Part shown: positions 28,054 through 54,867 of the stretch, piece after piece
How positions within the stretch are numbered: the first letter of the stretch is position 1
Layout: each line of letters starts with the position of its first letter
Assembly: GCA_965209085.1 (NCBI GenBank)
Contig: OZ242376.1
Span: 992,001 to 1,056,000, forward strand
DNA from: Nitrosopumilaceae archaeon
GTDB taxonomy: Archaea; Thermoproteota; Nitrososphaeria; Nitrososphaerales; Nitrosopumilaceae
Direction: 5' to 3'
DNA: 64,000 nucleotides
Translations under genes and position numbers: made by a program
The notes under the pieces: generated by a model
Database searches by the model: none
The model's input: the letters and a program-made list of their open reading frames with translations, nothing else
What the model was told of the DNA's origin: nothing

Positions 28054-31000
28054 TTAACTTGAATCATCATACAAGAGATTTGAGAGCTGTTGCATGCGTG
28101 CAGTTTCCAGCTCTAAGACAAGTTTGAATGAATCTCCTTTTCTAGAGTCCGTGCCGGTTGCATCAAAGTATATAGTTCCGCCATTCTCTGGCAGTGGTTT
28201 TATAATTGTAGCATGCCCCAATATTTCCGCAAGTGTTTCCTGGGCTCTTTTCTGCTCAGCGTATACAGTTGATGCAAAGTCCGGATGGTTGCGGTCAGGA
28301 CCGTGCAGTGTTCCGTATGTGTTATCATCAGGTACTACATATTCGGGGGTGGTAATTTGACGAACCGTATTTCCGATTATCATCCATTGGTAGCCGTATT
28401 GGTCCACCCAGAGGTGCTCTGCTCTGTCGATTTGCACCAAATGCAGTGTTTCAACCGTATTAGATATGCCTGTAGCATGGGATGTGCTAATATCAATCTC
28501 CTTTGGCAAGTTTATGGAATCACCATCAACGTGTATTCCATCGTTAAAGTAAAACTGGTGTGCATTATTATCCCAGTCTACTGGTTTTATCGATACTGTA
28601 TTGTATATGGGAGGCTCTCTGTATGAATATTTCAGCTCTACTAGCAGGCACTGTTGTACATCACCTGTGCATGATATTTGTGATACAGTAGATGATACAT
28701 CAGAGTCTTCAAGCAAGTTTAGTTTATCCACTATAACGATCTCTTTTACTGCAATACTGTCCTTTTGCATCCATACCTCTACAAATGCTTCAGCCTCATG
28801 ATATAATCCAACATCAGGTACTCCCAGTGCAACCTCTACGCGTTTAATGCCTTCAGGTCCAGCACTGTCGTATATTTTCATTTTTATCGTGTTTATATCG
28901 CCCACGTTTGTTCCAATCAGTGGGAATTCTGTATGATATCTGCCCACGTTTACTGTCAAACCGTTGTATTCAAAACCGTTTGTGACTAGCTGTGCCCCAG
29001 AGCTTGTCTTGCCCAATGTTGGTGCGTTACTATCACTATCACTATCACTGCCACCAGAGCTTGTGGTGTTTACTTTAAAGTCAGAGAGGTGTGATGTCCA
29101 TATCGTAACGGTGCGTTCTGTGGAATCGTACGTGTACAAGACGCCACTAAAACTAGCATTTCCATTTATAACAGTCAGGGCAGAAGAAGCGTCATCAATA
29201 GTACCATTGTGACGATTTATTAGAACATATGAATCAAAAGTACCGTTTCTAACAAATGCGTCAAATGATGATCTTGTTACTGAAAAAGTTAATTCCAGTG
29301 CATTGCCTGTGAGCGCATATGAGGTGTTTTCAAATCCAAGTCTTACTGCATCATCATTATGGTTGTCTATAATTTCACGAATGATAAAGTTGCCAGGGTT
29401 TGAATTATTAGTATTAAATGTCATTGTGGTGTTACGTTCTATTTTTACCGTTATTTTTGAATTTACCATTAGATCAAGTGGGTGAGGATATGTTGTAGTG
29501 TGCGTAACTGTAGAACCAGATGTAGTGTTAGATGTAACAGCGAATGTGTTCAATTCCAGTGTTGATGCGTGTAATTTAAGCTGGTTATCAGGATTGATGA
29601 GGCTATCATTATGTATTAGAGCCATTATCACACCATTAGGGTTTTGAACTATTGGAGCGTTGCTATCAATGTGACTTGAGTTTAGAATTGTGGTGCCGTT
29701 TACATTCCTTACGTCGATGTATGTTGTAGCACTAGAGCCCGGATTGCCGGCAGGGTCATTATTTGCAGTACATGTAACAGGGTATACGTTGGCGATCTCA
29801 TGGTTAACATGTGTTGTGTCACATGTTAGAGTTATAGAATTATAATTTAGATCACCATCATCTGTATCACCTCTAATTACCGGAAGTGTATCGTTTACCG
29901 TGATGATTTGAGGCAGGTCTGGTGTAATAGTTGGAGGTATGGTATCGACAAATACGTTGGAACCGATTAGATCATCTTGTGTAACAGTCAGGGTTGCTCC
30001 GTTGGCATTTGTAACCGTAATGGTAAAAGTGGCGTCTGATTCGATTGCACTAGTTGGAATTATACGAGTTGCTGTGAGGGTACTACCTGACGAAGAATTA
30101 GTAGTGGGTGGACCGTTTTGAATTATTACCGTATCGCTTGTAATGGTATCGTTTATCACCAACATTAGAGTCAGCGTATCGTCAGCTTTTGCGTATTGGG
30201 CGTTTTGGTTGTTAGATGTAAGGGTTAATGTGTTAATATTAATTGGCGGTGTATCCTGTACGATAACATTCCGTGTTATGGTAGATCCTGTATTGCCTGC
30301 AGGATCAACAGGTGCTGTATAAGTGAGGGTATAATTACCAACTATTGTAGTATTTACATTGCCGGCTCCGGATACTTGTACGCTACTTGTTGCATATGAT
30401 GCATCAGTTGCTGTGGCACCTGGATCCGTATAGGGGGAATTTGTTGCAATGCGAGTGTTGTTTGCACCCTTTAATGTTATACTAGGTGCAGTCGTATCTA
30501 TAGTGACATATGAGCCGTCTGTGATGTCAGCATTTGTTACTGATATTTGGCCACCAGTAGAGTTTGTCACGGTAATTGAAAACGTGGCATCTCCATCATC
30601 GCCGGACTGGACTGTACCGGTAAACGTAGCAGAGCCGCCGGTTGTAGTATTTGTAAATGATCTGCCAAGCAAGGTTCCATTGATATTGTCCAAATCAGAA
30701 CTATCTGTGGCAAGTGTGACGGTTATGTTTTTGCCTGCATTTGCATAATTGTTGCCTGATGAGCTTGCAATAGTCAGCGAGTTGATTGTAATTGGTTCAA
30801 AGTCAACCACTGTAACTGTTCGTGTTACACTAGAACCGGCATTTCCTGCCCCATCAGCTGCAGCAGTATACGTGTATAATACAACAGAGCCTAGCACGCT
30901 CGTATCCAAAGTGGCGTTTGTGGCAATGCTAAAAGTGCCAGCATAATTTGGATCCCCATCAGTTACAGTAACGTTTGGAATAGACGATACATTGTTGTTT

Positions 31001-34000
31001 TGCAATATGTTGTGGTTTTCAGAGCCAATCAGGGATATTCTAGGTGCGATTGTATCGATGAATATGCGACTGTTCTGCGGTATGGCACTCTCTGTTACAA
31101 ACAGGGTTGTACCCTCAGCGTTTGCAACCTGTATTGCAAAGGTTGCATATGATTCTGTTTGTATGGATGGTACGGTTAATGTGGCATTATAATTGGCACC
31201 ATTTAGGGTTACACTAGGGGTTAATCCCAGTATTTGGCTTGTATGAGATGAGATTATATTATTTACGGTAAATTGTACGGTGAGTGTATCGCCTGTTTTG
31301 GCATATGTTAGATTTGCATTGTTGCTAGTTATGTTAACCGTTGATTGTAATGATTCCAGTTTTATGATTTGGAGACCATCATTATTTGAGGCTATAAATG
31401 CATATATTTTGCCATTTATGGTTGCAGTAATAATATCTCTTGGGTTATCCAGATTTACATAACCGCCAGTATTATCCGTGAGAGAATATGTAGGTTGGGG
31501 GTTGTATGGGTCTGTAATGTCTATGATTTGGACGCCATCATCAATAATGGATACTGTCAAAGCATAAACTGATGATCCTACAGTTACGGTGGTGATCCTA
31601 TATGGACCATCTAGTTCATCATAGCCATCTATTCCATCTGTTACGCTTGATGCATTTGATGGGTTGTATGGGTCTGTAATGTTTATGATTTGGATGCTAT
31701 CATCATTAAAGGATGCCACCAAGGCATAAACTGATGATCCTACAGTTACGGTGGTGATGCCATATGCACCATCTAGTTCATCATAGCCATCTATTCCATC
31801 TGTTACACTTGATGCATTTGATGGGTTGTATGGGTCTGTAATGTTTATGATTTGGACGCCATCATCATTATTGGATGCCACCAAGGCATAAACTGATGCA
31901 CCGATTGTTACAGTGGTAATGTCAAATGCGCCTCCTAGTTCCAAATAACCATCCGTATCATCGGTAAGGTAGGATACATTTGAGGGGCTGAGGGGGTTTG
32001 TAACGTCTATGATTTGGACGCCGTTTGTAGGAGAGGCCGATGCAAACAGTGCAAAAGTTGAGGCACCTATTGTTACGGTTGTAACGCTTTGTGCATTGTA
32101 TAGTCGCGGATACTCTGTGCCGTTTACAAGTGTTGCAATAACAGAGGGGGATGCAGGTGAGCTGATGTCGAGTATACTAGTATTACCGATACCACCTGCA
32201 GCTATGGCATATTGGGTATTATCTATTGTAAAGATGGATGTTTTGTATGCAGGTATGAAACCGGTATTATTAAATACTATACTAGGTAATGCAGGATTTG
32301 TAACGTCTGCAATAATCCATGCTGCGCTGGATCCTTCCGTTAACAAGGCATATGTTTTACCACTTGTTTCAAACAGATTGATGGTAGTAGGAGGTATATT
32401 GGTTGAAAAATCAGTACCTTTTGTTAGTATTCCACTCGGAGAGTGGATAAGTTTAGTTTCAAGTGCCAATTGCGCTACATTCAAAACATTCACAGTACGG
32501 GATATGGTGTTACCTGGATTTCCTGCAACATCTGCAGGAGCTGCATAGGTTAGCGTGTACGTACCTATTGTATTTGTATTTACTGTATCACTGCTGTATA
32601 CTATAATGTTCTCATACGAGGCATCTGATGCAATAGCACCCGGATCCGTAAAAATAGCCCCCTTTGCAACGTTTACATTGTCTGTACCGCGCAGCGATAT
32701 GGCAGGTCTTATTGTATCAATTGTAACGTATGAATTGTCAGTTATTTCAGAGTTTGTCACGTATAAGATATTCCCTCTAGCATTTTCCAATAAAATGGTA
32801 AACATTGCATCACCGTTTGGACTTTGATCAGATATTGTAGCAGAAAGGGTCACAGTATTGCCAGATATAACAGGTGTAGCATTTGTGCCAAACAGCGTAC
32901 CGCTTACACTGGTCGGATCAAAGCTGTCCAAAACAAGTGTGAGTGATACTGTCTGCCCGGCGCGTGCAAAATTATCACTGCCAGTGCCTGATATGCCCAA
33001 AGATGTAACAAGTGTTTGCAAGCTATTCGATACGGTAACTGTTCGTGTTATACTAGGACCGGCATTTCCTGCCCCATCAGCTGCAGCAGTATACGTGTAC
33101 GTTACTGTAGAGTTTATCACGCTAGTATCCAAAGTGCCGATGATTACAGTAGTAAATGTATAAGGATAGTTTGGGTCCCCATCAGTTATGATTACACCAG
33201 GGATGGACGGATCAATTGAATTCAAAGGTACCATAAAAGATGAGTTGCCAATGAGGGATATTTCAGGTGCGATTGTATCGATGAATATGCGACTGTTCTG
33301 CGGTATGGCACTCTCTGTTACAAACAGGGTTGTACCCTCAGCGTTTACAACCTGTATTGCAAAGGTGATATTTGATTCAACAGGGGTGGCAGGTACTGTT
33401 ACTGTAGCGTTATAATTGGTACCAGTTATGGTTGCATTGGGGGTTAATTCGAGTATTTGGCCTGCATGCGATGAGATTGTATCATTTACGGTAAATGCAA
33501 TTCCCAATGTATCACCTGCTTTGGCATATGATTGGTCAGGATTACTGGTAGTTGAGATTACAGCAGAGGATCTCACACTTATGATTTGCAGACCATCATA
33601 TAATGATGTCACAAGGACATATGTTAAATCATTTATGCGTGCAAGAGCAATATCAGATGTACCATTCAGATTTGTATATCCACTAGTATCATCTGCAATA
33701 TTGTATGCCGGTAACGGGTTTTGTGGGTCTGTAATGTCTATAACTTGGATGCCATTATCACCATTTGATGCCACAAAGGCATACGTGGATAATCCTATTT
33801 GTTTTGCGACTATAGATAATGGGGCATTTAGTGTGTCATATCCGTCTATTCCGTCAGTAACTGAAGATACAGGGGAGGGGTTGTATGGGTCTGTAATGTT
33901 TATAATTTGGACGCCATTATCAGTTTTGGCTGCCACTAGGGCATACGTTGAGCCATCTATTGCTATCGTAGTGACATCCCATGCACCATCTAGTTCCGGA

Positions 34001-37000
34001 TATAATGTACCATCTGTAACCGAAGATGCAGGGGAGGGGTTGTATGGGTCTGTAATGTTTATGATTTGTACACCATTATCAACACTGGCTGCCACTAGGG
34101 CATACTGTGAGGATCCAATTGTTACGGTGGTAATGCCTTGTGCGCCATCTAGTACAGGGTATGTTGTACCATCTACTATATTTGATACATGTTTTAGACT
34201 GTCGGGGAATGTAGCGTTTACGATTTGGACGCCTTTATCAGTATTTTGGGAGGATATCAGGATATACGGTGTGGATCCTATTTTTATAGTGGTAACGCCA
34301 GTTGGAGAATTTACTGTCGGATATAAAGATCCACCGTCTATAGAACGGAGTACGGATGGTGATGCAGGATTGCTGAGATTGTAAATATTAACGCGGCTAG
34401 TAAAAGTTGACATGATGCCATACGGCAGACCGTCTACTGTAAGGATGGCCGAATCATGCGTAATAAAGCTGCCAATATTTTGTTCAGATATAACACTAGG
34501 TAATGCAGGATTTGTTATATCTAGAATAAAGAAATCATTGTTTGTATTAAATCCGTTGGTTACAAGAGCATATGTTTTGTCATTTATTTTAAACGGGTCT
34601 ATAGAGTTAAAGGTATAATCGCTGCTAAAATCAACGCCTCTGGTTAATTTTCCAGATGGAGATATAGATTGAAATTCAAGATCTAATGGCGGCACATCAA
34701 GGACATTCACAGTACGGGATATAGTGTTACCTAAATTTCCTGCACCATCTGCAGGAGCTGTATAGTTTAGCGTGTACGTACCTATTGTATTTGTATTTAC
34801 TGTATCATTGCTGTATACTATAATGTTCTCATACGAGGCATCTGATGCAATAGCACCTAAATCTATGAAATTGGCCCCGCGTGCCAGGGTTATATTTTCA
34901 GTACCGAGCAGAGATATCTCAGGTTTGATGGTATCAATGGTAACATACGAGCCATCCTTTATATCGATATTGGATATGCTAATTTGATTTCCGCTAGAGT
35001 TTGTCACGGTAATTGAAAATGTAGCATTTCCATCATCGCCAGATACGACAGTGGCAGTAAATTCAGCAGAACCGCCGGTTGTATCATTTACCAACTCTCT
35101 TCCAAGCAATGTTCCAGTGATATTGCCCAAATCGGAACCATCTGTGACAAGAGTGAGGGTTATGATTTTGCCTGCATTTGCATAATTGGTGCCTGATGAG
35201 CTTGCAATACTCAGCGAGTTGATTGTAATTGGTTCAGTCTCAACCACTGTAACTGTACGGGATATGCTATCTCCGAGATTTCCTGCATTATCAGCATCTG
35301 CCGTATACGTGTAAACAAAAACAGCGCCAAGTATGCTGGTATCAAGTGGAGGGTTTACTGTGGCGGTGTAAGTTCCCGAATAGTTTGGATCACCGTCTTT
35401 TGCAGTGGCACCGGGATCTGCATATGTGCTGCCTAAAACTATGGTTCCGTTTGCAGATCCTATCAGGGTTATGTTTGGAGGTATGGTATCGACAAATACG
35501 TTGGGACCGGTTAGATTATCTTCTGTAACAGTCAGGGTTGTTCCGTTGATGTTTGTAACAGTAAAGGTAAATGTAGCGTTTGATTCGGTTGCATTATTTG
35601 GAGTATTTAAATCTGCAAAGAGTTGACGGTCATTGCCACTAGTAATAAATTGAGTATCGGGGTCAGTGTTTAGAATTTGACCCGTATAGGTTATAATTGT
35701 ATAATTTACCGTCAACTCTAGATCCAGTCTATCGCCTGCTTTGGCGTATGATTTGTTGGTATTGAAAGATGTTATGGTAAACTCTGTGATACCAATTGGC
35801 AGTGTATCCTGTACGATAACATTCCGTGTTATGGTAGATCCTGTATTGCCTGCAGGATCATCTGGTGCAGTATAAGTGAGGGTATAATTACCAACTATTG
35901 CAGTATTTACATTGCCGGCTCCGGATACTTGTACGCTACTTGTTGCATATGATGCATCAGTTGCTGTGGCACCTGGATCCGTATAGGGGGAATTTGTTGC
36001 AACGCGAGTGTTGTTTTCACCGTTTAATGTTATGCTAGGTGCAGTTGTATCTATGGCAATATTTGATCCAGTCAGGTCTCTATTTGTAAATGTTGTAAAT
36101 GTGGAATTATCCTCGTTGTATGCGGTAATCAAAAATGTGACGCTGGCAGTATCGACAAAGGTTCCAGCAACTGTTACCGTGGCGGATGCATTATTGCCAG
36201 TGACAGTATATGCAACAGGATTGTTGGCAATTGTTCCTACAATATAATCAATCGTGCCGTTTGTAGCAAGCGTTACTATAATCACATCCCCGTCTTTGGC
36301 AAAAGAGGTGTTTACATTGTTGGATTCAATTGTCAGCGAATTCAGACCCAGAGGTTTTGCAAATACTGTAACTGTTCTAGTTTGTTGATCCGGCTCGTTA
36401 CCTGCAACATCCGCAGTGCCAGTATAGGTAATGTTTTGTGGGCCAAGTATCGCGGTGTTTAATGATGTGTTAGATACGGAACCTGCATATGATGCATTGT
36501 TACTATCTGATATTGTGGTGCCCGGATCCTGATATGTCTCACCCTGGAATACAGAACCTGCACCGCCAGTCAAAACAATTACGGGTTTTATCGTATCTAT
36601 TGTGACAAACGAGCCGTCTGTGGTGTCAGTAGTTATTATTGAAATTTGGTTGCCGCTAGAGTTTGTCACGGTAATTGAAAATGTAGCGTTTTCATTTGTA
36701 TCACCTAGCTGGACGGTAACAGTAAAGGTGGCATTGCCGCCGTTTGTAGTATTTGTAGATGATCTACCAAGCAGTGTTCCAGTAAAGTTGCCAAGATCCG
36801 AACCATCAGTGGCAAGTGTGAGGGTTATGATTTTGCCTGCATTTGCATAATTGGTGCCTGATGAGCTTTTAATAGTCAGCAAGGTAACATTTATTGGGTC
36901 AACATCCACTATCCGAACGATTCGGGTTGTGTTATCTCCGGGATTTCCTGCATTATCATCATGTGCTGTATACGTGTATTCGTAGATTGCACCAGGTATT

Positions 37001-40000
37001 GCAGTACTAAATGTGCCGTTTATGGTGGTGTTGTAAGTGCCCGAATAGTTTGGATCACCGTCTTTTGCAGTGGCACCCGGATCAGTATATTCGCTGTCTA
37101 AAACTATTCCACTGTCTGCAGGTCCTATCAGGGTTATGTTTGGAGGTATTGTATCGACAAATACGTTGGAACCAGTTAGATCGTTTTCTGTTACAGTCAA
37201 GGTTACTCCGTTGGCATTTGTAACCGTAATGGTAAAAGTGGCGTTTGATTCGATTGTACTAGTTGGAATTACACGACTTGCTGCGAGGGTACTACTTGAC
37301 GAAGAATTAGTAGTGAGTGAACCGTTTTGAATTTGTACCGTATCGCTTGTAATGGTATCGTTTATCACCAACGTTAGAGTCAGCACATCGCCAGCTTTTG
37401 CGTATTGGGTGTTTTGGTTGGAAGATGTAAATGTTAATATGTTAATTTTAATTGGCGGTGCATCCTGTACTGTAACAGTCCGTGTTATGACAGGTCCAAT
37501 ATTACCTGCAGGATCATCAGGTGCAGTATAAGTGAGAGTATAGATGGCATTTGTTGTAATATCTAAATTGCCGGTTCCGGATACCTGTACGCTATCTGTT
37601 GCATATGATGCATCAGATGCTGTGGCGTTTGGATCCTCATATGGTTGATTCCTGATAACAATGGTGTTGTTTGCACCGTTTAATGTTATACTTGGTGCAG
37701 TCGTATCTATAGTGACATATGATCTGTCTGTGATGTTAGCATTTGTTACTGATATTTGGTTGCCACTAGAGTTTGTCATGGTAATTGAAAATGTAGCGTT
37801 TTCATTTGTATCACCGGACTGGACGGTAACAGTAAAGGTGGCAACGCCGCCGTTTGTAGTATTTGTAAATGATCTATCAAGCAGTGATCCAGTAAAGTTG
37901 CCAAGATCCGAACCATCAGTGTCAAGTGTGAGGGTTATGATTTTGCCTGCATTTGCAAAATTGTTTCCAGAAGAGCTTGCAATACTCAGCGAGGTAACAT
38001 TTATTGGTTTAACGTCAACCACTGTAACTGTACGGGATATGCTATCTCCGAGATTTCCTGCATTATCAGCATCTGCCGTATACGTGTAAACAAAAACAGC
38101 GCCAAGTATGCTGGTATCAAGTGGAGGGTTTACTGTGGCGGTGTAAGTTCCCGAATAGTTTGGATCACCGTCTTTTGCAGTGGCACCGGGATCTGCATAT
38201 GTGCTGCCTAAAACTATGGTTCCGTTTGCAGATCCTATCAGGGTTATGTTTGGAGGTATGGTATCGACAAATACGTTGGGACCGGTTAGATTATCTTCTG
38301 TAACAGTCAGGGTTGTTCCGTTGATGTTTGTAACAGTAAAGGTAAATGTAGCGTTTGATTCGGTTGCATTATTTGGAGTATTTAAAAATGCAAGGAGTGT
38401 AATGTAGGTTTCAGCAAATAAAGTATCTGGGTTAGTGTTTAGAATTTGACCCGTATAGGTTGTAATTGTATCATTTACCGTCAACTCTAGAGTCAGTCTA
38501 TCGCCTGCTTTGGCGTATGATTTGTTGGTATTGGCAGTTGTAATGGTAAACGCTGTGATATCAATTGGCAGTGTATCCTGTACGATAACATTCCGTGTTA
38601 TGGTAGATCCTGTATTGCCTGCAGGATCAACAGGTGCAGTATAAGTGAGGGTATAGTTGTCAGCTGTTGCAATATCTACAGTGCCGGTTCCGGATACTTG
38701 TACGCTACTTGTTGCATATGATGCATCAGTTGCTGTGGCACCTGGATCCGTATAGGGGGAATTTGTTGCAACGATAGTGTTGTTTTCACCGTTTAATGTT
38801 ATACTAGGTGCAGTTGTATCTATAGTGACATGTGAGCTGTCTGTGATGTCAGCATTTGTTACTGATATTTGGTTGCCACTAGAGTTTGTCACGGTAATTG
38901 AAAATGTAGCGTTTTCATTTGTATCACCGGACTGGACGGTAACAGTAAAGGTGGCAACGCCGCCGTTTGTAGTATTTGTAAATGATCTGCCAAGCAAGGT
39001 TCCGGCGATATTGCCCAAATCAGAACCATCAGTGGTAAGAGTGAGGGTTATGATTTTGCCTGCATTTGCATAATTGGTGCCTGATGAGCTTGTAATACTC
39101 AGCGAGGTAACATTTATTGGGTCAGCATTAACAATCGTAACGCTTCTTGTCTGGTTTTCAGGTATATTACCAGCTGAATCCGCTTGTGCTGAATACGTGA
39201 CCAAATAACTAGCACCCAATACCGCACTGTTTATATTTTCAGATACGGTTGCGGATGTTTGTACATAGTTTGGATCATTGTCAGTTACTAGGGATCCATC
39301 ATCAATGTAAGTTGCATCTAGTGTCAAACTTTTATCGCTAGAACCTATCAGGGTTATTACCGGAGATTGTGTGTCTATATTGACATTGCTTGCAGTAATG
39401 TCCAATTCAGTTACAGTTTTTGTATTACCTGCACCATCAGAGATTGTAATGGCAAATACAGACGGGCCATTTGACGTATTCTCATCAATGTTCACACTGG
39501 CAGTGATGGTATTGCCAGGTACATTGGTTTGCGGTGTTTTTCCTAGTATGTGTCCATTTAGAAAAGATACAGGTTCATTTGCAACCAATGTGAGTGTTAT
39601 AGTATCAGATGATTTTGCAAATGCAGAATTGATATTGTCTGATGTGATAGAAAGTGAATTTAATGATGGCGCGATGGCATCTGTTGCAGTTACAGATCCA
39701 GAGTTTGCAATATTGCCTACAATATCAGATACACTCCCAATCAGTGTTATAACAGGTGTTGCATCTGCAGTAATGGGATCAGTTTCTATTCTCACCACAT
39801 TGTTTAAAACTGTTGCAGCAATTGCACTGATGCTGCCACTATCTATAGAAAAGTCGTTAGCGTTCAGGTTAGTGGAAGAAATGTCTTCATTGAATGTTAT
39901 TTCAATCGACGTTGTATCTAGTGTTCTAGCAGAAGACATGAAAGGTGGGGTTGTATCAGATATAGTAATTTGTTCTTTAAGCATTGCCAACCCCGTAATA

Positions 40001-43000
40001 TCACGCATTAATCCACTCATTTGTAACGTAGAGTTTGGCTGTAGTTTTCTATCAAATGTAAGACTGGTTGAGAGATTATCATTAGAAGTTGTAATACTGG
40101 TGATTACTCTTTGTGTCACATCTTTACTACCTACACCCTGAACCAAATCTATGAACGTTATCTCAAAGTCTTCTTCACTTATCAGGTCTTTACGTATTGG
40201 TTCGCTGTACGAGATATTCAAGTTGTAATAGTTGTCATATTCAGCTGATGTAATCGTTGGACGTATTCCGTCAGACACAGTTATGGTTGTTCCAATTGTG
40301 ATATTACTAGGTTGATACCTCGGAATACCAATATTAGTATCGGATATGTTGCCAGATATTGTTATAATAGGTGTGCTATCAGATGGCAGTTGATCTGTCG
40401 TAACCAAAATTATCTTGTTACGTTCAACTGATGCGCTTTGTAAAGACAATGAATCAGATAGTGTAAAGTCGGTCGTCTCAACATCTGCCATGTTTTTACT
40501 TAGTGTCAGAATGATCTTATTTCCATCGCCAGTTTCTGCCCTCAGTATTCTCGCAGGCAACAGAGTTTGATCCACTTTAATCGTAAAGTTTTTCAAAGCA
40601 ATGTTTTGCAGGTTATCAACAAAATTTTCTCTAGGGGCAAGTATTAGGTCTAGATTTGACTGGTTGAAAACAAATGGTAGGGGATCGGCGGGATTACCAT
40701 TAAATTGTATACCCAGATAACCATATACAGGGGTGATATGTGCTGGTTTCTTGTCATTTATTGTATAACCAGACACATCAAAAGTGACTATGTTATCATC
40801 AGACAACAATATCATAGTAAGAAAAATATTGGTGGATCCTCCATCATAACCCCAAAATGCGTTTATAGGGTATGGTCCCACTGTATCTGGTACGGTATGT
40901 GCAGTATACTCTATAGAGTTGCCACTACCATCTTTTATTACAGAATCAAGTATCTCAATGAGGGGAGTATCAACACTTGACAAAACGGTTGTGTTTAACA
41001 GTACAGTATTGCCAGATATTGCCGCATTTTTTACAACAGCGATAGCACTCGTGTTAGATATGCGAAAACTGTCAACTTTAAACTCAGTATCAGCTATAAT
41101 AGTTTCTGAAAATTCAATACTTAACGAGGTGTTTGATGCATGTGTAATGCTAGTTATTCTAGGAGCAACGCCGTCCTCTGCTGTGGTAGATACGTTAGTT
41201 GGAACTAGTTGTAATTGTATGTCTCCAGATACCGCATCTATAACAACGTTTGATGTTTTGGCAGTGTCTGTAGTATTGGTTTTTATTATAACATGAGGTA
41301 TGTTGTCATTATATCCTGCAAAAGAGAGTACATGCAGACCGCCTCGAGCGTTGAGATAATTGGCGCCGAGTACAATGTTTGGTGCACCGTTGGAATTTAA
41401 ATCTCCTAGTACAGCTATAGAACGTGCGATTTGAGAATTGCGTTGGAATTCAGTGTTGCGAGGTTCTAGAATTAAATCATCTATCGTTGCACTTGAAATT
41501 TCATAATACCCGTTTACAGATGTTCCGTTTGCTCCAAGGGATAATACATAAAATGCACCTGCAGTTTGAAAATTCGGAGTTTCGGGGGCAGATATTATCA
41601 TGTCGGTGTAGCCATCACCATTTATATCATTTAGTTTTGCTATGGATGACCCAAAAGCAACTGCTGGGCCAAAATCAGGTGGAAAATTTGAACCATGTAT
41701 ATTCATTCTACTAATATCTAGTATAGTTTCTCCGCGTTCACCTAGATGTATTGTGTATATAAAACTGTCCTTAGTTGCAGAATCGATGCTAGTTATCATG
41801 ACATCCGTATATCCATCATGGTTTAGATCACCCATGTTTTCAACAGCTACTCCAATAAGGGTCTCAGGGTGGTTTGGAAATGATGGAACTTGACTCTGTA
41901 TTACAGATAAATTATATTCAATTGTCTTTATCGGGAGACCATCACTGCCAAGATGCATGATGAAAAAAGAACCAACAACTATGGATGTATTTATACCGTT
42001 TTCAATGATAAAAGCAGGTGTGTTTATAGCTGAAACTAGAATGTCTTGTATTCCATCAGTATTTAGATCACCCATGTTTGTAATAGCAGTACCAAAGCCT
42101 AGACCGTTGTGTATTGTACTGTTAATATCGGCATATCCTAACACGCTAGAACCGTTTGGTCCAAGAAACAGCACGTACACAGAACCAAAAGCATCACCAT
42201 CAACCCGTACAGCACTGGCACCTACGGCGATATCCGTAAAGCCGTCACCGTTTATGTCGCCCAAATTTTCTAGAGATAAACCAAATCTTGAACCCAAGGT
42301 AGTATTATCGATTTTTGATAGTTCTGGCATATTTTCAGAGTCGCCGTCAAATAAAAATACGTCCAAAATAGACTCGGCATTTTCTCCCAAATGTACTATT
42401 GCTACGGCCCCACCCGCAGATGACTCACTTGCGTGTTTTGGTATTCCTACCATGATATCCTCGTATCCATCATCATTGATGTCACCCAAAGGAGATACAG
42501 CATATCCAAAATCATCATAGTATTTTATAAATTCTAAACCTGGCGTCGTACTGTCAAAAGTTGTTATTGATTTTATTTGTCCAGATATAGCCGCAGATTT
42601 CACACTTGCGCCATCCACTGTTATAGCAGAAGTCAAGGTGTTGTTTCCACTAAAAAAAGCATGCTGGTTGGTATTAAATCTCAACAAAATTGTTTCATTG
42701 TCGACATGTTTTGCACTAGCGGTTAACGAAGGGTCTTGTACGAACACCGTTCTAGTTTTACTAAAGGGTACATTTCCTGCGCCATCATTAGGTGCGGTAT
42801 ATTCCACAATAAACGTACCTATTGTACCAGTTGTTATAGATGAAGAATTGTCAGTTATTGTACCAGAATAAAGCGGATCACCATCAATTGCACTAGCTCC
42901 AAATTCCGTATAAGATTCACCCTGTGTAACGAATACGCCAAATGGACCGTTTAATGTTATGACAGGTATGCGTTTATCCACAAATACTGGCGTCGTACCT

Positions 43001-43440
43001 TGTGAAAGATTTTCTTCAGATAATGATATGTCTCCAGAGTTACTGGATACGTTTATTTCGAAATTTGCATAACCGTCAGGATCAGTTTCCAATATGGTTA
43101 TTGTGGCATTGAGTTCATTACCCAAAACTGATACGGTGGCATATTTACCATGTATTGTCGCCGTGGCATTATAATGCAACGTTTCATTCGCTTTAAAGTT
43201 TACAGTGATAGTATCGCCAGCATTGGCATATGCTGGATTTGTATTATTACTACTAGTTGTAATATTACCCGTTACCGGTTCGGTTAATGTTATAATGGGT
43301 AATGATAATGGTTGGTTTTCTTGATCACCAGCACCAAAAGTTAATTCTGCTGCTGCAACATCCTGGACATCATATGCAAAAGGGGAAATAAATGGTAAAG
43401 GCGACAACAACACTAGTGCAAATATTGCAACTGCATACAT
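28054..43440 (-). CDS. Giant secreted surface protein/adhesin 2 (5128 aa): FG-GAP/integrin-alpha propeller, Ig-like stalk, two LVIVD-like propellers, conserved C-terminal domain
   Basis: FG.....LGDINGDG..D..VGA repeats; 40-aa YALVAS..DDGVQIINITDPYNPS repeats; DUF5011-like modules; signal peptide and C-terminus shared with gene 1. Confidence 0.9.
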   Translation of the reverse strand: MYAVAIFALVLLSPLPFISPFAYDVQDVAAAELTFGAGDQENQPLSLPIITLTEPVTGNITTSSNNTNPAYANAGDTITVNFKANETLHYNATATIHGKYATVSVLGNELNATITILETDPDGYANFEINVSSNSGDISLSEENLSQGTTPVFVDKRIPVITLNGPFGVFVTQGESYTEFGASAIDGDPLYSGTITDNSSSITTGTIGTFIVEYTAPNDGAGNVPFSKTRTVFVQDPSLTASAKHVDNETILLRFNTNQHAFFSGNNTLTSAITVDGASVKSAAISGQIKSITTFDSTTPGLEFIKYYDDFGYAVSPLGDINDDGYEDIMVGIPKHASESSAGGAVAIVHLGENAESILDVFLFDGDSENMPELSKIDNTTLGSRFGLSLENLGDINGDGFTDIAVGASAVRVDGDAFGSVYVLFLGPNGSSVLGYADINSTIHNGLGFGTAITNMGDLNTDGIQDILVSAINTPAFIIENGINTSIVVGSFFIMHLGSDGLPIKTIEYNLSVIQSQVPSFPNHPETLIGVAVENMGDLNHDGYTDVMITSIDSATKDSFIYTIHLGERGETILDISRMNIHGSNFPPDFGPAVAFGSSIAKLNDINGDGYTDMIISAPETPNFQTAGAFYVLSLGANGTSVNGYYEISSATIDDLILEPRNTEFQRNSQIARSIAVLGDLNSNGAPNIVLGANYLNARGGLHVLSFAGYNDNIPHVIIKTNTTDTAKTSNVVIDAVSGDIQLQLVPTNVSTTAEDGVAPRITSITHASNTSLSIEFSETIIADTEFKVDSFRISNTSAIAVVKNAAISGNTVLLNTTVLSSVDTPLIEILDSVIKDGSGNSIEYTAHTVPDTVGPYPINAFWGYDGGSTNIFLTMILLSDDNIVTFDVSGYTINDKKPAHITPVYGYLGIQFNGNPADPLPFVFNQSNLDLILAPRENFVDNLQNIALKNFTIKVDQTLLPARILRAETGDGNKIILTLSKNMADVETTDFTLSDSLSLQSASVERNKIILVTTDQLPSDSTPIITISGNISDTNIGIPRYQPSNITIGTTITVSDGIRPTITSAEYDNYYNLNISYSEPIRKDLISEEDFEITFIDLVQGVGSKDVTQRVITSITTSNDNLSTSLTFDRKLQPNSTLQMSGLMRDITGLAMLKEQITISDTTPPFMSSARTLDTTSIEITFNEDISSTNLNANDFSIDSGSISAIAATVLNNVVRIETDPITADATPVITLIGSVSDIVGNIANSGSVTATDAIAPSLNSLSITSDNINSAFAKSSDTITLTLVANEPVSFLNGHILGKTPQTNVPGNTITASVNIDENTSNGPSVFAITISDGAGNTKTVTELDITASNVNIDTQSPVITLIGSSDKSLTLDATYIDDGSLVTDNDPNYVQTSATVSENINSAVLGASYLVTYSAQADSAGNIPENQTRSVTIVNADPINVTSLSITSSSGTNYANAGKIITLTLTTDGSDLGNIAGTLLGRSFTNTTNGGVATFTVTVQSGDTNENATFSITVTNSSGNQISVTNADITDSSHVTIDTTAPSITLNGENNTIVATNSPYTDPGATATDASYATSSVQVSGTGTVDIATADNYTLTYTAPVDPAGNTGSTITRNVIVQDTLPIDITAFTITTANTNKSYAKAGDRLTLELTVNDTITTYTGQILNTNPDTLFAETYITLLAFLNTPNNATESNATFTFTVTNINGTTLTVTEDNLTGPNVFVDTIPPNITLIGSANGTIVLGSTYADPGATAKDGDPNYSGTYTATVNPPLDTSILGAVFVYTYTADADNAGNLGDSISRTVTVVDVKPINVTSLSIASSSGNNFANAGKIITLTLDTDGSDLGNFTGSLLDRSFTNTTNGGVATFTVTVQSGDTNENATFSITMTNSSGNQISVTNANITDRSYVTIDTTAPSITLNGANNTIVIRNQPYEDPNATASDASYATDSVQVSGTGNLDITTNAIYTLTYTAPDDPAGNIGPVITRTVTVQDAPPIKINILTFTSSNQNTQYAKAGDVLTLTLVINDTITSDTVQIQNGSLTTNSSSSSTLAASRVIPTSTIESNATFTITVTNANGVTLTVTENDLTGSNVFVDTIPPNITLIGPADSGIVLDSEYTDPGATAKDGDPNYSGTYNTTINGTFSTAIPGAIYEYTYTAHDDNAGNPGDNTTRIVRIVDVDPINVTLLTIKSSSGTNYANAGKIITLTLATDGSDLGNFTGTLLGRSSTNTTNGGNATFTVTVQLGDTNENATFSITVTNSSGNQISIITTDTTDGSFVTIDTIKPVIVLTGGAGSVFQGETYQDPGTTISDSNNASYAGSVSNTSLNTAILGPQNITYTGTADVAGNEPDQQTRTVTVFAKPLGLNSLTIESNNVNTSFAKDGDVIIVTLATNGTIDYIVGTIANNPVAYTVTGNNASATVTVAGTFVDTASVTFLITAYNEDNSTFTTFTNRDLTGSNIAIDTTAPSITLNGENNTRVATNSPYTDPGATATDASYATSSVQVSGAGNVNTAIVGNYTLTYTAPDDPAGNTGSTITRNVIVQDTLPIGITEFTITSFNTNKSYAKAGDRLDLELTVNYTIITYTGQILNTDPDTQFITSGNDRQLFADLNTPNNATESNATFTFTVTNINGTTLTVTEDNLTGPNVFVDTIPPNITLIGSANGTIVLGSTYADPGATAKDGDPNYSGTYTATVNPPLDTSILGAVFVYTYTADADNAGNLGDSISRTVTVVETEPITINSLSIASSSGTNYANAGKIITLTLVTDGSDLGNITGTLLGRELVNDTTGGSAEFTATVVSGDDGNATFSITVTNSSGNQISISNIDIKDGSYVTIDTIKPEISLLGTENITLARGANFIDLGAIASDASYENIIVYSNDTVNTNTIGTYTLNYTAPADGAGNLGNTISRTVNVLDVPPLDLEFQSISPSGKLTRGVDFSSDYTFNSIDPFKINDKTYALVTNGFNTNNDFFILDITNPALPSVISEQNIGSFITHDSAILTVDGLPYGIMSTFTSRVNIYNLSNPASPSVLRSIDGGSLYPTVNSPTGVTTIKIGSTPYILISSQNTDKGVQIVNATFPDSLKHVSNIVDGTTYPVLDGAQGITTVTIGSSQYALVAASVDNGVQIINITDPYNPSPASSVTDGTLYPELDGAWDVTTIAIDGSTYALVAAKTDNGVQIINITDPYNPSPVSSVTDGIDGYDTLNAPLSIVAKQIGLSTYAFVASNGDNGIQVIDITDPQNPLPAYNIADDTSGYTNLNGTSDIALARINDLTYVLVTSLYDGLQIISVRSSAVISTTSNPDQSYAKAGDTLGIAFTVNDTISSHAGQILELTPNATITGTNYNATVTVPATPVESNITFAIQVVNAEGTTLFVTESAIPQNSRIFIDTIAPEISLIGNSSFMVPLNSIDPSIPGVIITDGDPNYPYTFTTVIIGTLDTSVINSTVTYTYTAAADGAGNAGPSITRTVTVSNSLQTLVTSLGISGTGSDNFARAGQTVSLTLVLDSFDPTSVSGTLFGTNATPVISGNTVTLSATISDQSPNGDAMFTILLENARGNILYVTNSEITDNSYVTIDTIRPAISLRGTDNVNVAKGAIFTDPGAIASDASYENIIVYSSDTVNTNTIGTYTLTYAAPADVAGNPGNTISRTVNVLNVAQLALETKLIHSPSGILTKGTDFSTNIPPTTINLFETSGKTYALLTEGSSAAWIIADVTNPALPSIVFNNTGFIPAYKTSIFTIDNTQYAIAAGGIGNTSILDISSPASPSVIATLVNGTEYPRLYNAQSVTTVTIGASTFALFASASPTNGVQIIDVTNPLSPSNVSYLTDDTDGYLELGGAFDITTVTIGASVYALVASNNDDGVQIINITDPYNPSNASSVTDGIDGYDELDGAYGITTVTVGSSVYALVASFNDDSIQIINITDPYNPSNASSVTDGIDGYDELDGPYRITTVTVGSSVYALTVSIIDDGVQIIDITDPYNPQPTYSLTDNTGGYVNLDNPRDIITATINGKIYAFIASNNDGLQIIKLESLQSTVNITSNNANLTYAKTGDTLTVQFTVNNIISSHTSQILGLTPSVTLNGANYNATLTVPSIQTESYATFAIQVANAEGTTLFVTESAIPQNSRIFIDTIAPRISLIGSENHNILQNNNVSSIPNVTVTDGDPNYAGTFSIATNATLDTSVLGSVVLYTYTAAADGAGNAGSSVTRTVTVVDFEPITINSLTIASSSGNNYANAGKNITVTLATDSSDLDNINGTLLGRSFTNTTTGGSATFTGTVQSGDDGDATFSITVTNSTGGQISVTNADITDGSYVTIDTTAPSITLKGANNTRIATNSPYTDPGATATDASYATSSVQVSGAGNVNTTIVGNYTLTYTAPVDPAGNTGSTITRNVIVQDTPPININTLTLTSNNQNAQYAKADDTLTLMLVINDTITSDTVIIQNGPPTTNSSSGSTLTATRIIPTSAIESDATFTITVTNANGATLTVTQDDLIGSNVFVDTIPPTITPDLPQIITVNDTLPVIRGDTDDGDLNYNSITLTCDTTHVNHEIANVYPVTCTANNDPAGNPGSSATTYIDVRNVNGTTILNSSHIDSNAPIVQNPNGVIMALIHNDSLINPDNQLKLHASTLELNTFAVTSNTTSGSTVTHTTTYPHPLDLMVNSKITVKIERNTTMTFNTNNSNPGNFIIREIIDNHNDDAVRLGFENTSYALTGNALELTFSVTRSSFDAFVRNGTFDSYVLINRHNGTIDDASSALTVINGNASFSGVLYTYDSTERTVTIWTSHLSDFKVNTTSSGGSDSDSDSNAPTLGKTSSGAQLVTNGFEYNGLTVNVGRYHTEFPLIGTNVGDINTIKMKIYDSAGPEGIKRVEVALGVPDVGLYHEAEAFVEVWMQKDSIAVKEIVIVDKLNLLEDSDVSSTVSQISCTGDVQQCLLVELKYSYREPPIYNTVSIKPVDWDNNAHQFYFNDGIHVDGDSINLPKEIDISTSHATGISNTVETLHLVQIDRAEHLWVDQYGYQWMIIGNTVRQITTPEYVVPDDNTYGTLHGPDRNHPDFASTVYAEQKRAQETLAEILGHATIIKPLPENGGTIYFDATGTDSRKGDSFKLVLELETARMQQLSNLLYDDSS

Positions 43441-50462: not shown

Positions 50463-53400
50463 CTAGTAGTCTTCGCGGTAGGGTTCAAGCGGCATGATGG
50501 TTGTTTTATTTTTTATCGACCATTCAATGGTCTTTACAAAAGATTCGGCAAGCTCAGGCGTGGTGAGGACTGGAATTCCCATCTCTAGTGCCTTGCGACG
50601 TATGAGATATTCATCAGAAAGCATTCCCACGTATTTTTCAAGGGTCGATGTTCCAGGTATGTTTATTATAAAATCAATTTTATGCTCGTATAACAAATCC
50701 GATATGTTTGGTTTTCTGTCCGGTTCGCTTATTTTATGGACTGTTTTGGCACCTGGCAGGGTTTTTGCAAAAAATTCCACAGTGTGCTCTGTTGCACAAA
50801 TTTCAAATCCCATCTGGTGCAGCGAGGCAATGATCGGCAAAAGACGTTCTTTGTTTTCAGTCCCACCTATGGTGACAAGCGCCATTCCCGAATGCGGTAT
50901 GTGATACCCCACGGAGGTGAGCGCCTTGGATAATGCATCATAAAAGCTGCTCCCAAAACACGCAGCCTCTCCTGTTGATTGCATCTCCACTCCCAGCACA
51001 ATGTCTGCCCCTTCAAGCTGCATGAATGAAAATTGGGGTACCTTTATCCCGTACACCTCTGTTTTTTTCCAGTGATCATGGCGTATCTCCGGCAGTCCCT
51101 CCCCCAATATTGCACCAGAAGCTAAAGAGATGAGGTTTGTTCTGACAAGTTTTGAGACAAACGGCATGGAGCGGGACGCGCGTATGTTGAGCTCTATTAC
51201 GTATACGGTTCCCCCGTTTATTAGAAACTGCAAGTTGAATGGACCGCGTATGTTAAAGGCAATTGCAATCTTTTCGGTATAATCTGTAATGGTTTCTATC
51301 ACCTTGTTGTTTAGTCGCCATGGTGGTATGCACATCATCGCATCCCCAGAATGCACTCCCGCGCTGTCAATGTGCTCAACTACTGCCCCTATTATCACGC
51401 GTTTTCCATCGCAGACTCCGTCAACATCCACTTCAAGCGAGTTTAACATGAATTTTGAGACAACCACGGGATGATCATTTGATATGTCTACAGCTTCGCC
51501 AATGTATTTTTTCAGCTCATTTTGCGACCATATGACGTTCATTGCCGCGCCGCTCAATACGTAAGAGGGCCGTACCAGTACAGGATACCCGACCCTTTGT
51601 GCAAATTCTTTTGCACTAGTTATGTCCGTAAACGTCTGCCAAAGCGGCTGCCTAATGTGCATTCCATCAAGCACAGAGCTGAATGTGGAGCGGTTTTCGG
51701 CCCGGTCCACATCATATGATGATGTGCCAAGTATTGGAATTTTATTCTCGGCCAGCTCGGGGGTGAGATTGTTTGCAGTCTGCCCTCCAACGCACGTTAT
51801 TACACCATGTGGTGATTCAAATTCGGCAATGTCCAGTATGCGCTCCACTGTAAGCTCTTCAAAGTACAGCCTGTCACTTGTGTCATAATCAGTTGAGACA
51901 GTCTCAGGATTACAGTTTACCACGATAACATCCCCCTTGCGGCGTTTTTTCAGCCCCAAAACCATGTTTACCGTTCCCCAGTCAAATTCCACGCTGCTTC
52001 CAATGCGGTAGGGTCCGGCCCCCAAAACGATGATGCTCTTTAATTTATCCTGTATTTTGATGTCATCAGAGTCCCCGCCGTACGTCATGTACAGGTAGTT
52101 TGTCTTTGCTGGCCACTCTGCTGCAAGTGTATCTATCTGTTTTACGCACGGTTTTATTCCAAGACGCAGTCTCATCTCCCGGATATGGTTATGGGTGGTT
52201 TTTTGCGCGCGTGCAATCTGCATGTCAGAAAAACCCAGCCGTTTGGCATCGCGCATGCGCACCCCATCTGTTGCATCGGGCAATTTTTTCCCCATCAAAA
52301 CTATGTTCCGTATTTTTTCAACAAACCACGGATCTATTGCAGAGAGTGAGGATATTTTCCCAGTGTCCATCCCAAGGGCAATTGCGTGTGCCACATTGTA
52401 CAGTATGTTATCGTCAGGGTGTAAAAGGGCATACTCTACTTCCTCCTCTGTGGGCAGATTCCCGTCCCTCTCTGATAAGATCAGCCCGTCACGTCCGGTG
52501 TCAAGCATACGGATGGCTTTTTGCAGCGACTCCTCAAAGCTGCGCCCGATTGCCATAACCTCTCCGACTGATTTCATTGTAGGACCAAGGTTTCGTTTCG
52601 CCATCTCGAATTTGTCAAAATCCCACCTTGGATGTTTGCATACGATGTAGTCAAGTGCCGGCTCAAAGCATGCAGTTGTTTTCTTTGTAATGCTGTTTAC
52701 AAGCTCTGGCAGCGTATACCCGAGTGCAATTTTTGCAGACATGTACGCCAAAGGATATCCTGTGGCCTTGCTTGCAAGAGCTGATGAGCGTGAGAGTCTT
52801 GGGTTTACCTCTATTGCTGCAAAACGCGATGATTTTGTATCCAGGGCATACTGAATGTTGCACTCTCCTACTATCCCCACGTGCCGTATGGCCTGCAGTG
52901 CCGCAAGGCGCATTTCATGGTATTCCTGGTTGTTTATTGTCTGCGACGGAGCTACTACCACGTTGTCTCCTGTATGCACACGCATTGATAGGACATTTTC
53001 CATATTACACACTATGACGCTATTGTCTGCAGCATCACGCATGACCTCGTATTCTATCTGCTTCCAGTCCCCGACATATTCCTCGATGAGCACCTGTCCC
53101 ACCATGCTTGCAGATATTCCCCTTTGAACTATCTCGTGCAATTCAATTTCATTGTGCGCCACTCCCCCGCCTTTTCCTCCAAGCGTGTACGCTACGCGCA
53201 CTATGACAGGATATCCAAGATCCGCTGCAGCATCCTTTGCACCATCAAAGCTTGTAACAGTTTTACCGCGTAAAACCGGTATCTTGCATTGTTCCATGGC
53301 ATCCTTGAAGAGCTGCCTATCCTCAGTATTGCGTATTCCATCAATCTGTGTTCCAAGCACCTTTATGCCGTATTTTGATAAAATACCCGCATCATCCAAA

Positions 53401-53723
53401 CCCACACCGCAGTTTAATGCAGTCTGGCCTCCAAACGATAAGATGAGCGCATCGGGGCGTTCCTTTTCTATGACAGACTCTACATATTGGGAATTTACCG
53501 GTAAAAGGTACACCTTGTCAGCTGAGCGCGTATCAGTCTGTATTGTGGCCACGTTTGGATTTACAAGAATGCTGGAAATTCCCTCCTCGCGCAAGGCTTT
53601 GAGGCATTGGCTTCCAGAGTAGTCGAATTGGCGGCTGTTTTAACAGCTTTCGCCGGCTTCTCCGATCTTTATTGCCCCGCTTCCTAGCACGAGTATTTTC
53701 TTTAGAGTCTCATTTTTTGGCAT
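50463..53723 (-). CDS. carB: Carbamoyl-phosphate synthase large subunit; two exons (53723-53649 and 53627-50463), 1079 aa if spliced
   Basis: Conserved N-terminus MPKNETLKKILVLGSGAIKIGEAGE|FDYSGSQCLKALREEG lies upstream of the ORF-track start; two ATP-grasp halves and an MGS domain. Confidence 0.95.
53628..53648 (-). other. Putative 21-nt bulge-helix-bulge/loop intron in carB
   Basis: AGCTGTTAAAACAGCCGCCAA with in-frame TAA; GGCG/CGCC central helix, AAA bulge, GCTGT/ACAGC hairpin; removal restores GGC GAA TTC GAC. Confidence 0.85.
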
Positions 53724-54867
53724 GTGCACCTCCATTCATCAGGCTCTGCAGCTCTTTGAATACAAACTTGCAGTCAAACGGTCCAGGAGACGCCTCTGGG
53801 TGAAACTGCACTGCTATGCATTTTTGTTTTTTATGACGTATTCCTTCCACGGTTCCATCATCGGCATTTTTAAACCACATCTCAAATTCGGAATTTTCAA
53901 GTGATTCAGGACTGATGCAGTATCCGTGGTTTTGACTCGTCACGTATACCCTGCCATCCTGCAAATTTATGCACGGTTTGTTTTGTCCACGGTGTCCGTA
54001 CTTTAGCTTGTACGTTTTTGCCCCTCCTGCAAGTCCGATTATCTGCGCTCCAAGACATATTCCAAGTGTGGGGATGTTTTTGGATACAAGGTTTTTAACA
54101 GTCTGCACCGTTTGGTGGCATTTTTCAGGATCTCCAGGTCCGTTACTCACAACCACCCCGCTTGGTTTGTAGGAGAGTATTTTCTCAGCTGTTGAATCCC
54201 ATGGAACCGTAATGACCCTATACCCAAGATCACGCACGCATCTTATTATGGCGTTTTTTACACCCACGTCAATTATGACGACCGATTCTTTTCCATTACC
54301 GTATATGTGATCCGTTGTTGTTGAAACTTGCCCCACCAGGTTTTCTGAAGAATACGCATCTGATGCGCGCATCCGCTCAAGTATTTTGTGCTCATCAATC
54401 TCATCATCGGATACGGCAACAGCTGCCATGCCCACTCCCTCCTCGCGCAGTTTTTTTGTCAAAGATCTTGTATCAATTCCAGATATTGCAGGTATTTTTT
54501 GTCCGTGCAGCCATTCATCAAGCGTCATGGACATGTTCCAGTGGCTAGCAACAGTGGAGAGCTCGTGCACCACAAGCGCCCGTGGCTGTATGCGTCCGGA
54601 TTCAGAGTTTACATGTATGCCATCCTCATCTTGAACAGACATGTCAGGTACGCCGTAATTTCCCACAAGCGGATATGTGAGGGTTAGGATTTGCCCGCAA
54701 TACGAGGGATCCGTCAAAGTTTCCACATACCCGACCATCCCTGTATTAAAGACAATCTCGCCAACAGCTGTCCCAGAATATCCAAACCCCGTGCCGTTAA
54801 ATACAGAGCCATCACTTAGAATCAGTTTCCCATTTTTATTGGCGTATTGCGCCTCTTTGATAGCTAT
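53710..54867 (-). CDS. carA: Carbamoyl-phosphate synthase small subunit; start codon unclear (non-canonical)
   Basis: GKLILSDG..GEIVFNTGMVGY..TDPSY.GQ, SNGPGDP, GICLG, SQNHGY, QFHPEASPGP; conserved N-terminus lies upstream of the first ATG (54738). Confidence 0.92.
   Translation of the reverse strand: MAIKEAQYANKNGKLILSDGSVFNGTGFGYSGTAVGEIVFNTGMVGYVETLTDPSYCGQILTLTYPLVGNYGVPDMSVQDEDGIHVNSESGRIQPRALVVHELSTVASHWNMSMTLDEWLHGQKIPAISGIDTRSLTKKLREEGVGMAAVAVSDDEIDEHKILERMRASDAYSSENLVGQVSTTTDHIYGNGKESVVIIDVGVKNAIIRCVRDLGYRVITVPWDSTAEKILSYKPSGVVVSNGPGDPEKCHQTVQTVKNLVSKNIPTLGICLGAQIIGLAGGAKTYKLKYGHRGQNKPCINLQDGRVYVTSQNHGYCISPESLENSEFEMWFKNADDGTVEGIRHKKQKCIAVQFHPEASPGPFDCKFVFKELQSLMNGGAHAKK

Follow-up and report, generated by a model that had tools for sequence, protein, structure and literature searches.

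A putative bulge-helix-bulge intron in the carB mRNA of ammonia-oxidising archaea

How can a gene for a core metabolic enzyme carry a stop codon near its 5' end and still encode a full-length product? The question is raised by carB on the minus strand of the window, the 64,000-nt stretch of Nitrosopumilaceae DNA analysed here. The gene runs from an ATG at 53723..53721, behind a Shine-Dalgarno-like GGAGGTG at 53733..53727, to a stop at 50465..50463, and its sole frame defect is a run of 21 nt at 53648..53628. Around that run the minus strand reads GGA GAA GCC GGC GAA, then the insert AGC TGT TAA AAC AGC CGC CAA, then TTC GAC TAC TCT GGA; translation of 53735..50463 gives a single frame with one internal stop, the TAA at 53642..53640 within the insert. 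The insert lies after 25 codons, between ...IGEAGE and FDYSGSQCLK..., and divides the gene into an upstream segment of 25 codons (53649..53723, hereafter exon 1) and a downstream segment of 1054 codons plus the stop (50463..53627, exon 2, starting FDYSGSQCLK), which together make 1079 amino acids. Pfam confirms the CarB assignment, with CPSase_L_D2, CPSase_L_D1, CPSase_L_D3 and MGS matches in exon 2, and assigns CarA (GATase and CPSase_sm_chain) to the gene directly upstream, at 53710..54825 on the same strand, whose stop overlaps the carB start region. The host gene is thus carB and not cbf5, and the site does not belong to the cbf5 family.

A preliminary description, made from the letters of the window, had proposed that the 21 nt are an intron of the bulge-helix-bulge (BHB) type, and the sequence reads exactly as it was quoted there. 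In the RNA, the exonic GGCG at 53651..53654, made of the Gly codon GGC and the G of the Glu codon, would pair with an intronic CGCC at 53630..53633 as a central 4-bp helix. Between its strands come a 3-nt bulge AAA (53648..53650, predicted cut after 53649) and a hairpin GCUGU/ACAGC with a UAAA loop (53634..53647); on the other side lie the 3' splice-site bases AAU (53627..53629, predicted cut after 53628), within a 5-nt loop AAUUC opposite one base. The putative intron (53628..53648) is therefore composed of A, the hairpin GCUGU-UAAA-ACAGC, CGCC and AA. An outer exon-exon helix joins UCGGAG followed by AGC in exon 1 (53656..53665) to G.CU followed by CUCUGG in exon 2 (53614..53624). The minimum free energy fold of 53672..53605 agrees with the structure as first drawn, with GGCG/CGCC, the AAA bulge, GCUGU-UAAA-ACAGC and outer CGGAG/CUCUG pairing between the exons. 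By itself this fold is within chance (z = -1.71, with 10 of 200 shuffles folding equally well), and we judge it to be more than chance because homologous inserts are found in 32 other assemblies.

These homologs came from a scan of species-representative genomes with the 300 residues after the insert as query. The scan returned at least 600 matching stretches, 588 of them confirmed, and 80 loci were kept, so that any statement of prevalence refers to a sample. Together with the window they make 81 sequences, of which two (L042 and L076) are cut at a contig edge, leaving 79 informative. Among the matches listed, an insert at the identical codon boundary is present in 33 of the 79: the window itself, 31 loci in which the insert is complete, and L031, where the contig begins inside it. 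The remaining 46 read uninterrupted through ...E/FDYSG. All 33 insert-bearers are Nitrososphaeria by record title and tree position, and they span two orders and include relatives of Nitrososphaera, Nitrosocosmicus, Nitrosarchaeum, Nitrosotenuis and Nitrosotalea; none of the Bathyarchaeia, Thermoplasmata, Asgard, DPANN or bacterial loci among the matches listed has the insert. The preliminary description had suggested looking in relatives for same-position inserts with covarying stems, and the outcome is positive and far wider than expected. An assembly or sequencing artefact, for which the sole argument is that the case began with a single window, is scarcely credible when homologous inserts occur in 32 independent assemblies made with various assemblers, the chromosome-level L009 and L021 included.

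The 32 complete inserts vary in length: 20 nt in four, 21 nt in 13, 22 nt in six, 26 nt in three, 28 nt in two, and 29, 31, 38 and 52 nt in one each. Modulo three, these lengths divide 13/10/9; with 19 of the 32 out of step with the triplet frame, the insert is under no coding constraint, as expected for non-coding sequence. The same plan recurs in all 32: exonic GGCG is followed by a 3-nt bulge, then by a hairpin and a 4-nt complement of GGCG, and the 3' splice site comes two bases further on. The 5' bulge is AAA in 20, AGA in 10 and AAU in two; the hairpin always closes at the base right after the bulge, with three to nine unbroken pairs; GGCG faces CGYN, with four pairs formed in 27 of 32 and three in the other five; and the 3' bulge is AAU in 23, AUU in seven and AGU in two.

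The canonical archaeal splicing endonuclease, EndA, cuts after the second base of each bulge. Applied to the 32 complete inserts, this rule excises exactly the insert and restores GEAGE/FDYSG every time; in the window it gives the 1079-residue CarB predicted in the preliminary description, which the codon counts of the two exons match. Seven sequences, those whose 3' bulge is AUU, are informative here, as a one-base shift of register would swap out the conserved Glu, and only the predicted register gives Glu-Phe. Because of the complete restoration and these seven cases, we consider that the BHB cut rule and the coding requirement agree independently.

A MAFFT alignment of 31 of the sequences, omitting L035 (too little of exon 1) and L031, bears on whether the structure itself is maintained. 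The proposed structure gives standard pairs in 96.2% of 496 cells, compared with 20 to 53% after the 3' partners have been displaced by one to three columns; in the outer helix 100% of cells are paired. The observed covariation score was reached in none of 500 shuffles, and cells changed on both sides number 39 as against 12.7 +/- 4.4 in shuffles; the shuffles ignore relatedness, hence these figures are not probabilities. In the intron hairpin, compensatory double changes occur in four of the five pairs across the 31 sequences (U-A/C-G, C-G/U-A and A-U/G-C, the last at 14 versus 14). In the central helix the sole variation is from G-C to G-U, which is expected because one of its strands is fixed by codons.

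RNAalifold, given no structure, finds the same fold: an outer helix in columns 8-13/85-90 and 15-17/80-83, and inside it the central helix with its 3-nt bulge and hairpin. In the consensus a 5-nt loop (AAUUY) facing a single base holds the 3' splice site, and is followed by a C:G pair and the outer helix. The motif is therefore a relaxed one and not a strict hBHBh', a class that we rejected, as the 3' site lacks a clean 3-nt bulge closed at once by an exon-exon helix. What is found instead corresponds to the relaxed HBh' form, with a central 4-bp helix, a 3-nt 5' bulge followed by h', an exon junction that is restored, and a non-coding insert. This departure from the textbook 3-nt bulge at the 3' site is a feature that might favour removal of the insert from the RNA by some machinery other than EndA and the ligase RtcB, such as another nuclease and ligase or self-cleavage. 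We think this unlikely: the BHB rule geometry fits all 32 inserts, lengths of 20 to 52 nt are too short for group I or group II self-splicing introns, which are far larger, and Rfam at gathering thresholds has no match at the carB site, its one hit in the window being a tRNA.

The outer helix is made of coding sequence, and we therefore compared synonymous sites between intron-bearers, intronless ammonia-oxidisers and other intronless sequences. The Gly codon within GGCG is GGC in all 31 intron-bearers, in two of seven intronless ammonia-oxidisers and in nine of 37 others; the Gly at -5 is GGA in 29/31, 0/7 and 2/37, and the Tyr at +3 is TAC in 31/31, 1/7 and 26/37, respectively. All five core pairs of CGGAG/CUCYG form in every one of the 31 intron-bearers, and do so in one of the seven and two of the 37. 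Fixed synonymous sites in the exons of intron-bearers thus preserve the exon-exon helix, and intronless relatives do not keep them. The relaxed exon side that the preliminary description had sketched is borne out for UCGGAG/CUCYGG, the helix whose synonymous sites are conserved and which RNAalifold found independently. The intronless Nitrosopumilus carB genes, which are nested among intron-bearers in the tree, have drifted to AT-rich synonymous codons. Such drift would be expected once a constraint on RNA structure had been lifted, with the compositional bias of the Nitrosopumilus clade as an alternative contributor.

The possibility that carB is a pseudogene broken by a small palindromic insertion has in its favour the in-frame stop in the window and further stops in three relatives. 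Exon 2 is unbroken, at about 1055 codons, in 28 of the 32 insert-bearers; the exceptions are L027, which ends at a contig edge, and three sequences with premature stops, at codon 438 in L013, 411 in L015 and 955 in L022, which may stem from draft error or from decay; the title of L015 marks it as a low-coverage contig. In all 32 the exon-1 peptide, ...KKILVLGSGAIKIGEAGE, is conserved when read in its own frame, even in the 19 whose exon 2 lies in a different frame. Loss of frame constraint is thus not what we see, and a pseudogene is also hard to reconcile with a same-site insert in 33 sequences from two orders and with substitutions that preserve the structure. Nor was a second carB found, either in the window or, from the insert-bearing chromosome-scale assemblies L009 and L021, among the 80 loci kept. 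We regard this explanation as very improbable, if not quite so far-fetched as an artefact.

Without splicing, a stop would be met no more than 24 codons past the end of exon 1 in all 32 sequences, and in 27 of them it lies inside the insert; the unspliced carB mRNA of the window would yield a peptide of only about 27 residues. Translational recoding, by readthrough of the TAA or by a ribosome hop over the insert, would nevertheless require no splicing. The stop in the window lies in a hairpin straight after a conserved codon, and bypassing, for which phage T4 gene 60 is the precedent, copes with gaps that are not multiples of three. Readthrough is ruled out for the 19 inserts whose lengths are not multiples of three, since it could not restore their frame. 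A programmed bypass like that of T4 gene 60 was rejected as well, because the take-off codon (GAR) and the landing codon match in none of the 32 sequences. The conserved features are, moreover, those of an EndA substrate, namely the 4-bp helix, the 3-nt bulge and cuts two bases into each bulge. Recoding seems to us a slim prospect, marginally better than a pseudogene. Each of these alternatives, whether pseudogene, assembly artefact, readthrough or ribosomal bypass, is either excluded or very unlikely.

As a separate observation, the in-frame 21-nt inserts (the window and 12 loci) contain a stop codon in 13 of 13 cases, mostly UAA or UAG in the hairpin loop. The stops may simply have been inherited, or they may be kept by selection against a full-length protein enlarged by seven residues.

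On these comparisons, the insert is a real, conserved RNA-structure element with all of the sequence-level hallmarks of an endonuclease-type intron. The reading that we favour, and hold to be very probably correct, is that the 21 nt are a BHB intron in the carA-carB mRNA that is cut by EndA, the exons then being ligated to encode the 1079-residue CarB. In the carA-carB transcript, exonic GGCG would pair with intronic CGCC, flanked on the 5' side by the 3-nt bulge and intron hairpin, and the 3' splice site would lie in a small loop closed by the UCGGAG...CUCYGG exon-exon helix. The splicing endonuclease would cleave both bulges after the second base, and an RNA ligase would join the exons. In archaea the exon-joining RNA ligase is RtcB. 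The product, with GGC GAA joined to TTC GAC, would encode CarB with the GEAGEFDYSG motif intact, and would yield a predicted junction-spanning tryptic peptide, IGEAGEFDYSGSQCLK. An (alpha-beta)2 EndA that accepts relaxed motifs is reported for Thaumarchaeota in the excerpted text of PMC5829648, which describes it as heterotetrameric, in keeping with the suggestion in the preliminary description that heterotetrameric EndA is relevant here. EndA cleavage, ligation and CarB's need for splicing are all steps that we infer from sequence. In most sampled ammonia-oxidising archaea, the core enzyme CarB most likely depends on mRNA splicing.

A more elaborate proposal is that the intron, far from a relic that is merely tolerated, is an obligatory tRNA-type splice, kept across the ammonia-oxidiser radiation, which serves as a kinetic switch for CarB output. 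On the exon-1 side the exon-exon helix would cover codons 20 to 23 with the first base of codon 24, and on the exon-2 side codons +2 to +5; ribosomes leaving carA, which overlaps carB, would unwind this helix and then terminate within the intron. If this were true, EndA/RtcB capacity relative to translation would set the CarB level, and pyrimidine and arginine synthesis would be tied to RNA-processing status. We consider the proposal as a whole doubtful, and the regulatory role of the intron that the preliminary description had raised, as a "control point", is unsupported.

The history of the intron was considered with a quick IQ-TREE phylogeny (LG+G4, 400 columns, 62 rows, omitting L042 and the more distant L063-L080). 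The ammonia-oxidisers form a clade of 39 rows (SH-aLRT 98), and among the matches listed the intron is present in 32 of these, including all 16 rows on the Nitrososphaeraceae side. The window, at 41.9% G+C, is sister to a Cenarchaeum sp. genome (L009, SH-aLRT 94), and the two are 78% identical across the 300 residues used as query. All seven intronless rows fall within a derived Nitrosopumilus group, and an ancestral intron with later loss is therefore the simplest reading: the intron would be old, already carried by the shared ancestor of the two main ammonia-oxidiser lineages, and would have disappeared from a Nitrosopumilus subclade. One sequence complicates this picture. L053, a metagenome-assembled genome titled Nitrososphaerales, has a 21-nt intron at the same site (L053:277-341) and groups with two intronless sequences outside the clade, and the AU test rejects a tree that forces it into the ammonia-oxidiser clade (p-AU 2.5e-5). 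The data therefore do not establish that the intron arose once; the position of L053 may reflect an origin further back with additional losses, a second, independent gain at this site, or a compositional artefact. With its retention and loss the carB intron offers a datable case, and its many natural variants could be used in studying how EndA recognises substrates other than tRNA.

The insert has also left its mark on the databases. Of 8000 candidate CarB protein matches that were scored, we took the best 120, in which the N-terminus is normal in 111 and, because of the insert, wrong in nine. The nine (P0040, P0041, P0044, P0045, P0066, P0069, P0072, P0075 and P0118, with ordinary large-subunit names where named) begin with a stretch resembling MGQ[LS]KSEKQAKV...RQ followed by FDYSG, which corresponds to an out-of-frame exon 1 plus the intron read in the frame of exon 2. 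One of these wrong N-termini represents a cluster of 174 member sequences under NCBI's plain large-subunit name. The preliminary description had expected gene callers to miss carB, by truncating it or calling a pseudogene; the gene is indeed mis-modelled, in nine of the best 120 matches, but as a frameshifted exon 1 with the insert read through, and not as a truncation or pseudogene. Since such N-termini lack the conserved glycine-rich segment, pathway reconstructions could score carB as broken.

Initiation of both genes of the pair deserves a comment of its own. At the carB start position most loci have ATG or TTG, usually preceded by a GGAGG motif. The position holds CTG in ten Nitrosopumilaceae (L001-L004, L006, L009, L012, L013, L015 and L022) and ATT in L028 and L029, of the Nitrososphaeraceae clade; mostly behind GGAGG, these starts suggest routine non-canonical initiation at the carA-carB overlap. 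For carA of the window, no in-frame ATG, GTG or TTG is found upstream of the conserved N-terminus ...GKLILSDGSVF..., and starting at the first in-frame ATG, at 54738, would drop about 30 conserved residues; Pfam matches the profile only from position 30. At 54820..54833 on the minus strand of the window, and in many Nitrosopumilaceae, an ATG, TTG or GTG occurs at a fixed position one base out of the carA frame. The in-frame amino acids at that position vary among the carA upstream regions compared (L001-L040), and the Nitrososphaeraceae carA has an in-frame ATG at the spot where the Nitrosopumilaceae codon is out of frame. A CTG or ATT at 54825..54820 is a possible start for carA in the window.

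No endA or rtcB gene is among the 33 ORFs scanned with Pfam within the 64-kb window, and ARAGORN finds in it one tRNA, an intron-less tRNA-Asn. The window also holds two convergent giant ORFs, at 3660..19517 on the plus strand (5285 aa) and 28054..43440 on the minus strand (5128 aa), which carry Ig-like surface and FG-GAP repeats and share 85% identity over roughly their final 350 residues. ORFs that recur on the antisense strand suggest tandem units. Between the two giant genes, at 26169..26567 on the minus strand, lies a small ORF with transposase-type helix-turn-helix domains by Pfam.

Further introns of this type were sought in two ways. A generic scan of the window for BHB motifs combined with ORFs gave 4743 and 4575 raw matches on the two strands and 146 after the ORF filter, which is too unspecific to be of use. 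A covariance model built from the carB alignment scores intron-bearers at 62 to 88 bits, the cut L031 at 23.9 and intronless genes at no more than 40, and in 575,296 bases it finds the carB site and no second one; the model includes the exon flanks, and is therefore unable to find introns in other genes.

A BHB intron in the cbf5 pre-mRNA of Crenarchaeota was reportedly described by Watanabe in 2002 and by Yoshinari in 2006. The preliminary description had noted that no intron was known in carB, and likewise no paper connecting a BHB intron with carB or carbamoyl-phosphate synthase came up in our full-text literature search, although older papers or supplements might hold an earlier mention. 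In the excerpts that the search returned, cbf5 is the only archaeal coding sequence with a BHB intron inside it, and archaeal mRNA BHB introns are not mentioned in the excerpted text of a 2026 review of non-canonical splicing (PMC13149111). Yokobori 2009 states, in the portion available (PMC2738675), that splicing has been confirmed for no gene other than cbf5, that the motif of the cbf5 mRNA intron is frequently relaxed, and that the cbf5 genes of Cenarchaeum symbiosum and Nitrosopumilus maritimus lack introns. If a second gene family were to join cbf5, splicing of mRNAs by the tRNA machinery would cease to be a one-gene curiosity.

The likeness between the two cases is considerable. From the same excerpts (PMC2738675), the cbf5 intron is, like that of carB, a small endonuclease-type intron in a protein-coding frame with an often relaxed cleavage motif; it occurs in lineages with hetero-oligomeric EndA, in a patchy distribution with gain and loss, and it has been mistaken for a frameshift by gene prediction. 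The differences are that cbf5 encodes an RNA-modification enzyme in Crenarchaeota, whereas carB encodes a core metabolic enzyme in Nitrososphaeria; that a conserved distal exon-exon helix is documented for the carB intron; and that splicing of cbf5 has been shown experimentally, whereas that of carB is deduced from sequence.

In the HAC1 and XBP1 mRNAs, a short intron defined by structure is cut by a protein endonuclease and the exons are joined by tRNA ligase or RtcB, with a change of the downstream frame. These eukaryotic systems work in the way that we propose for carB, with the difference that their nuclease is IRE1 and not EndA, and that they are stress-regulated whereas regulation of carB is conjecture. 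The EndA of Haloferax volcanii is of the homodimer type. In that organism HVO_1309 (Schwarz 2020, PMC7714728) is, like carB, an mRNA with a BHB motif, and it is cut by EndA in vivo and in vitro; unlike carB, it is a single euryarchaeal case and, in the excerpted text, is not described as having an intron that interrupts the frame. Closest in form are the archaeal pre-tRNA introns (hBHBh' and the relaxed HBh'/hBH; Hirata 2019, PMC6379350, in excerpt), which share with carB the 4-bp helix, the flanking 3-nt bulges and the symmetric cuts, and the length of the carB insert is within the range of 11 to 175 nt given for tRNA introns in the available portion of PMC2738675. The carB intron differs from these in having no tRNA body, in lying in a polycistronic mRNA with a codon-constrained exon strand, and in placing its 3' site in a 5 x 1 internal loop; the enzymes acting on both are presumed to be the same.
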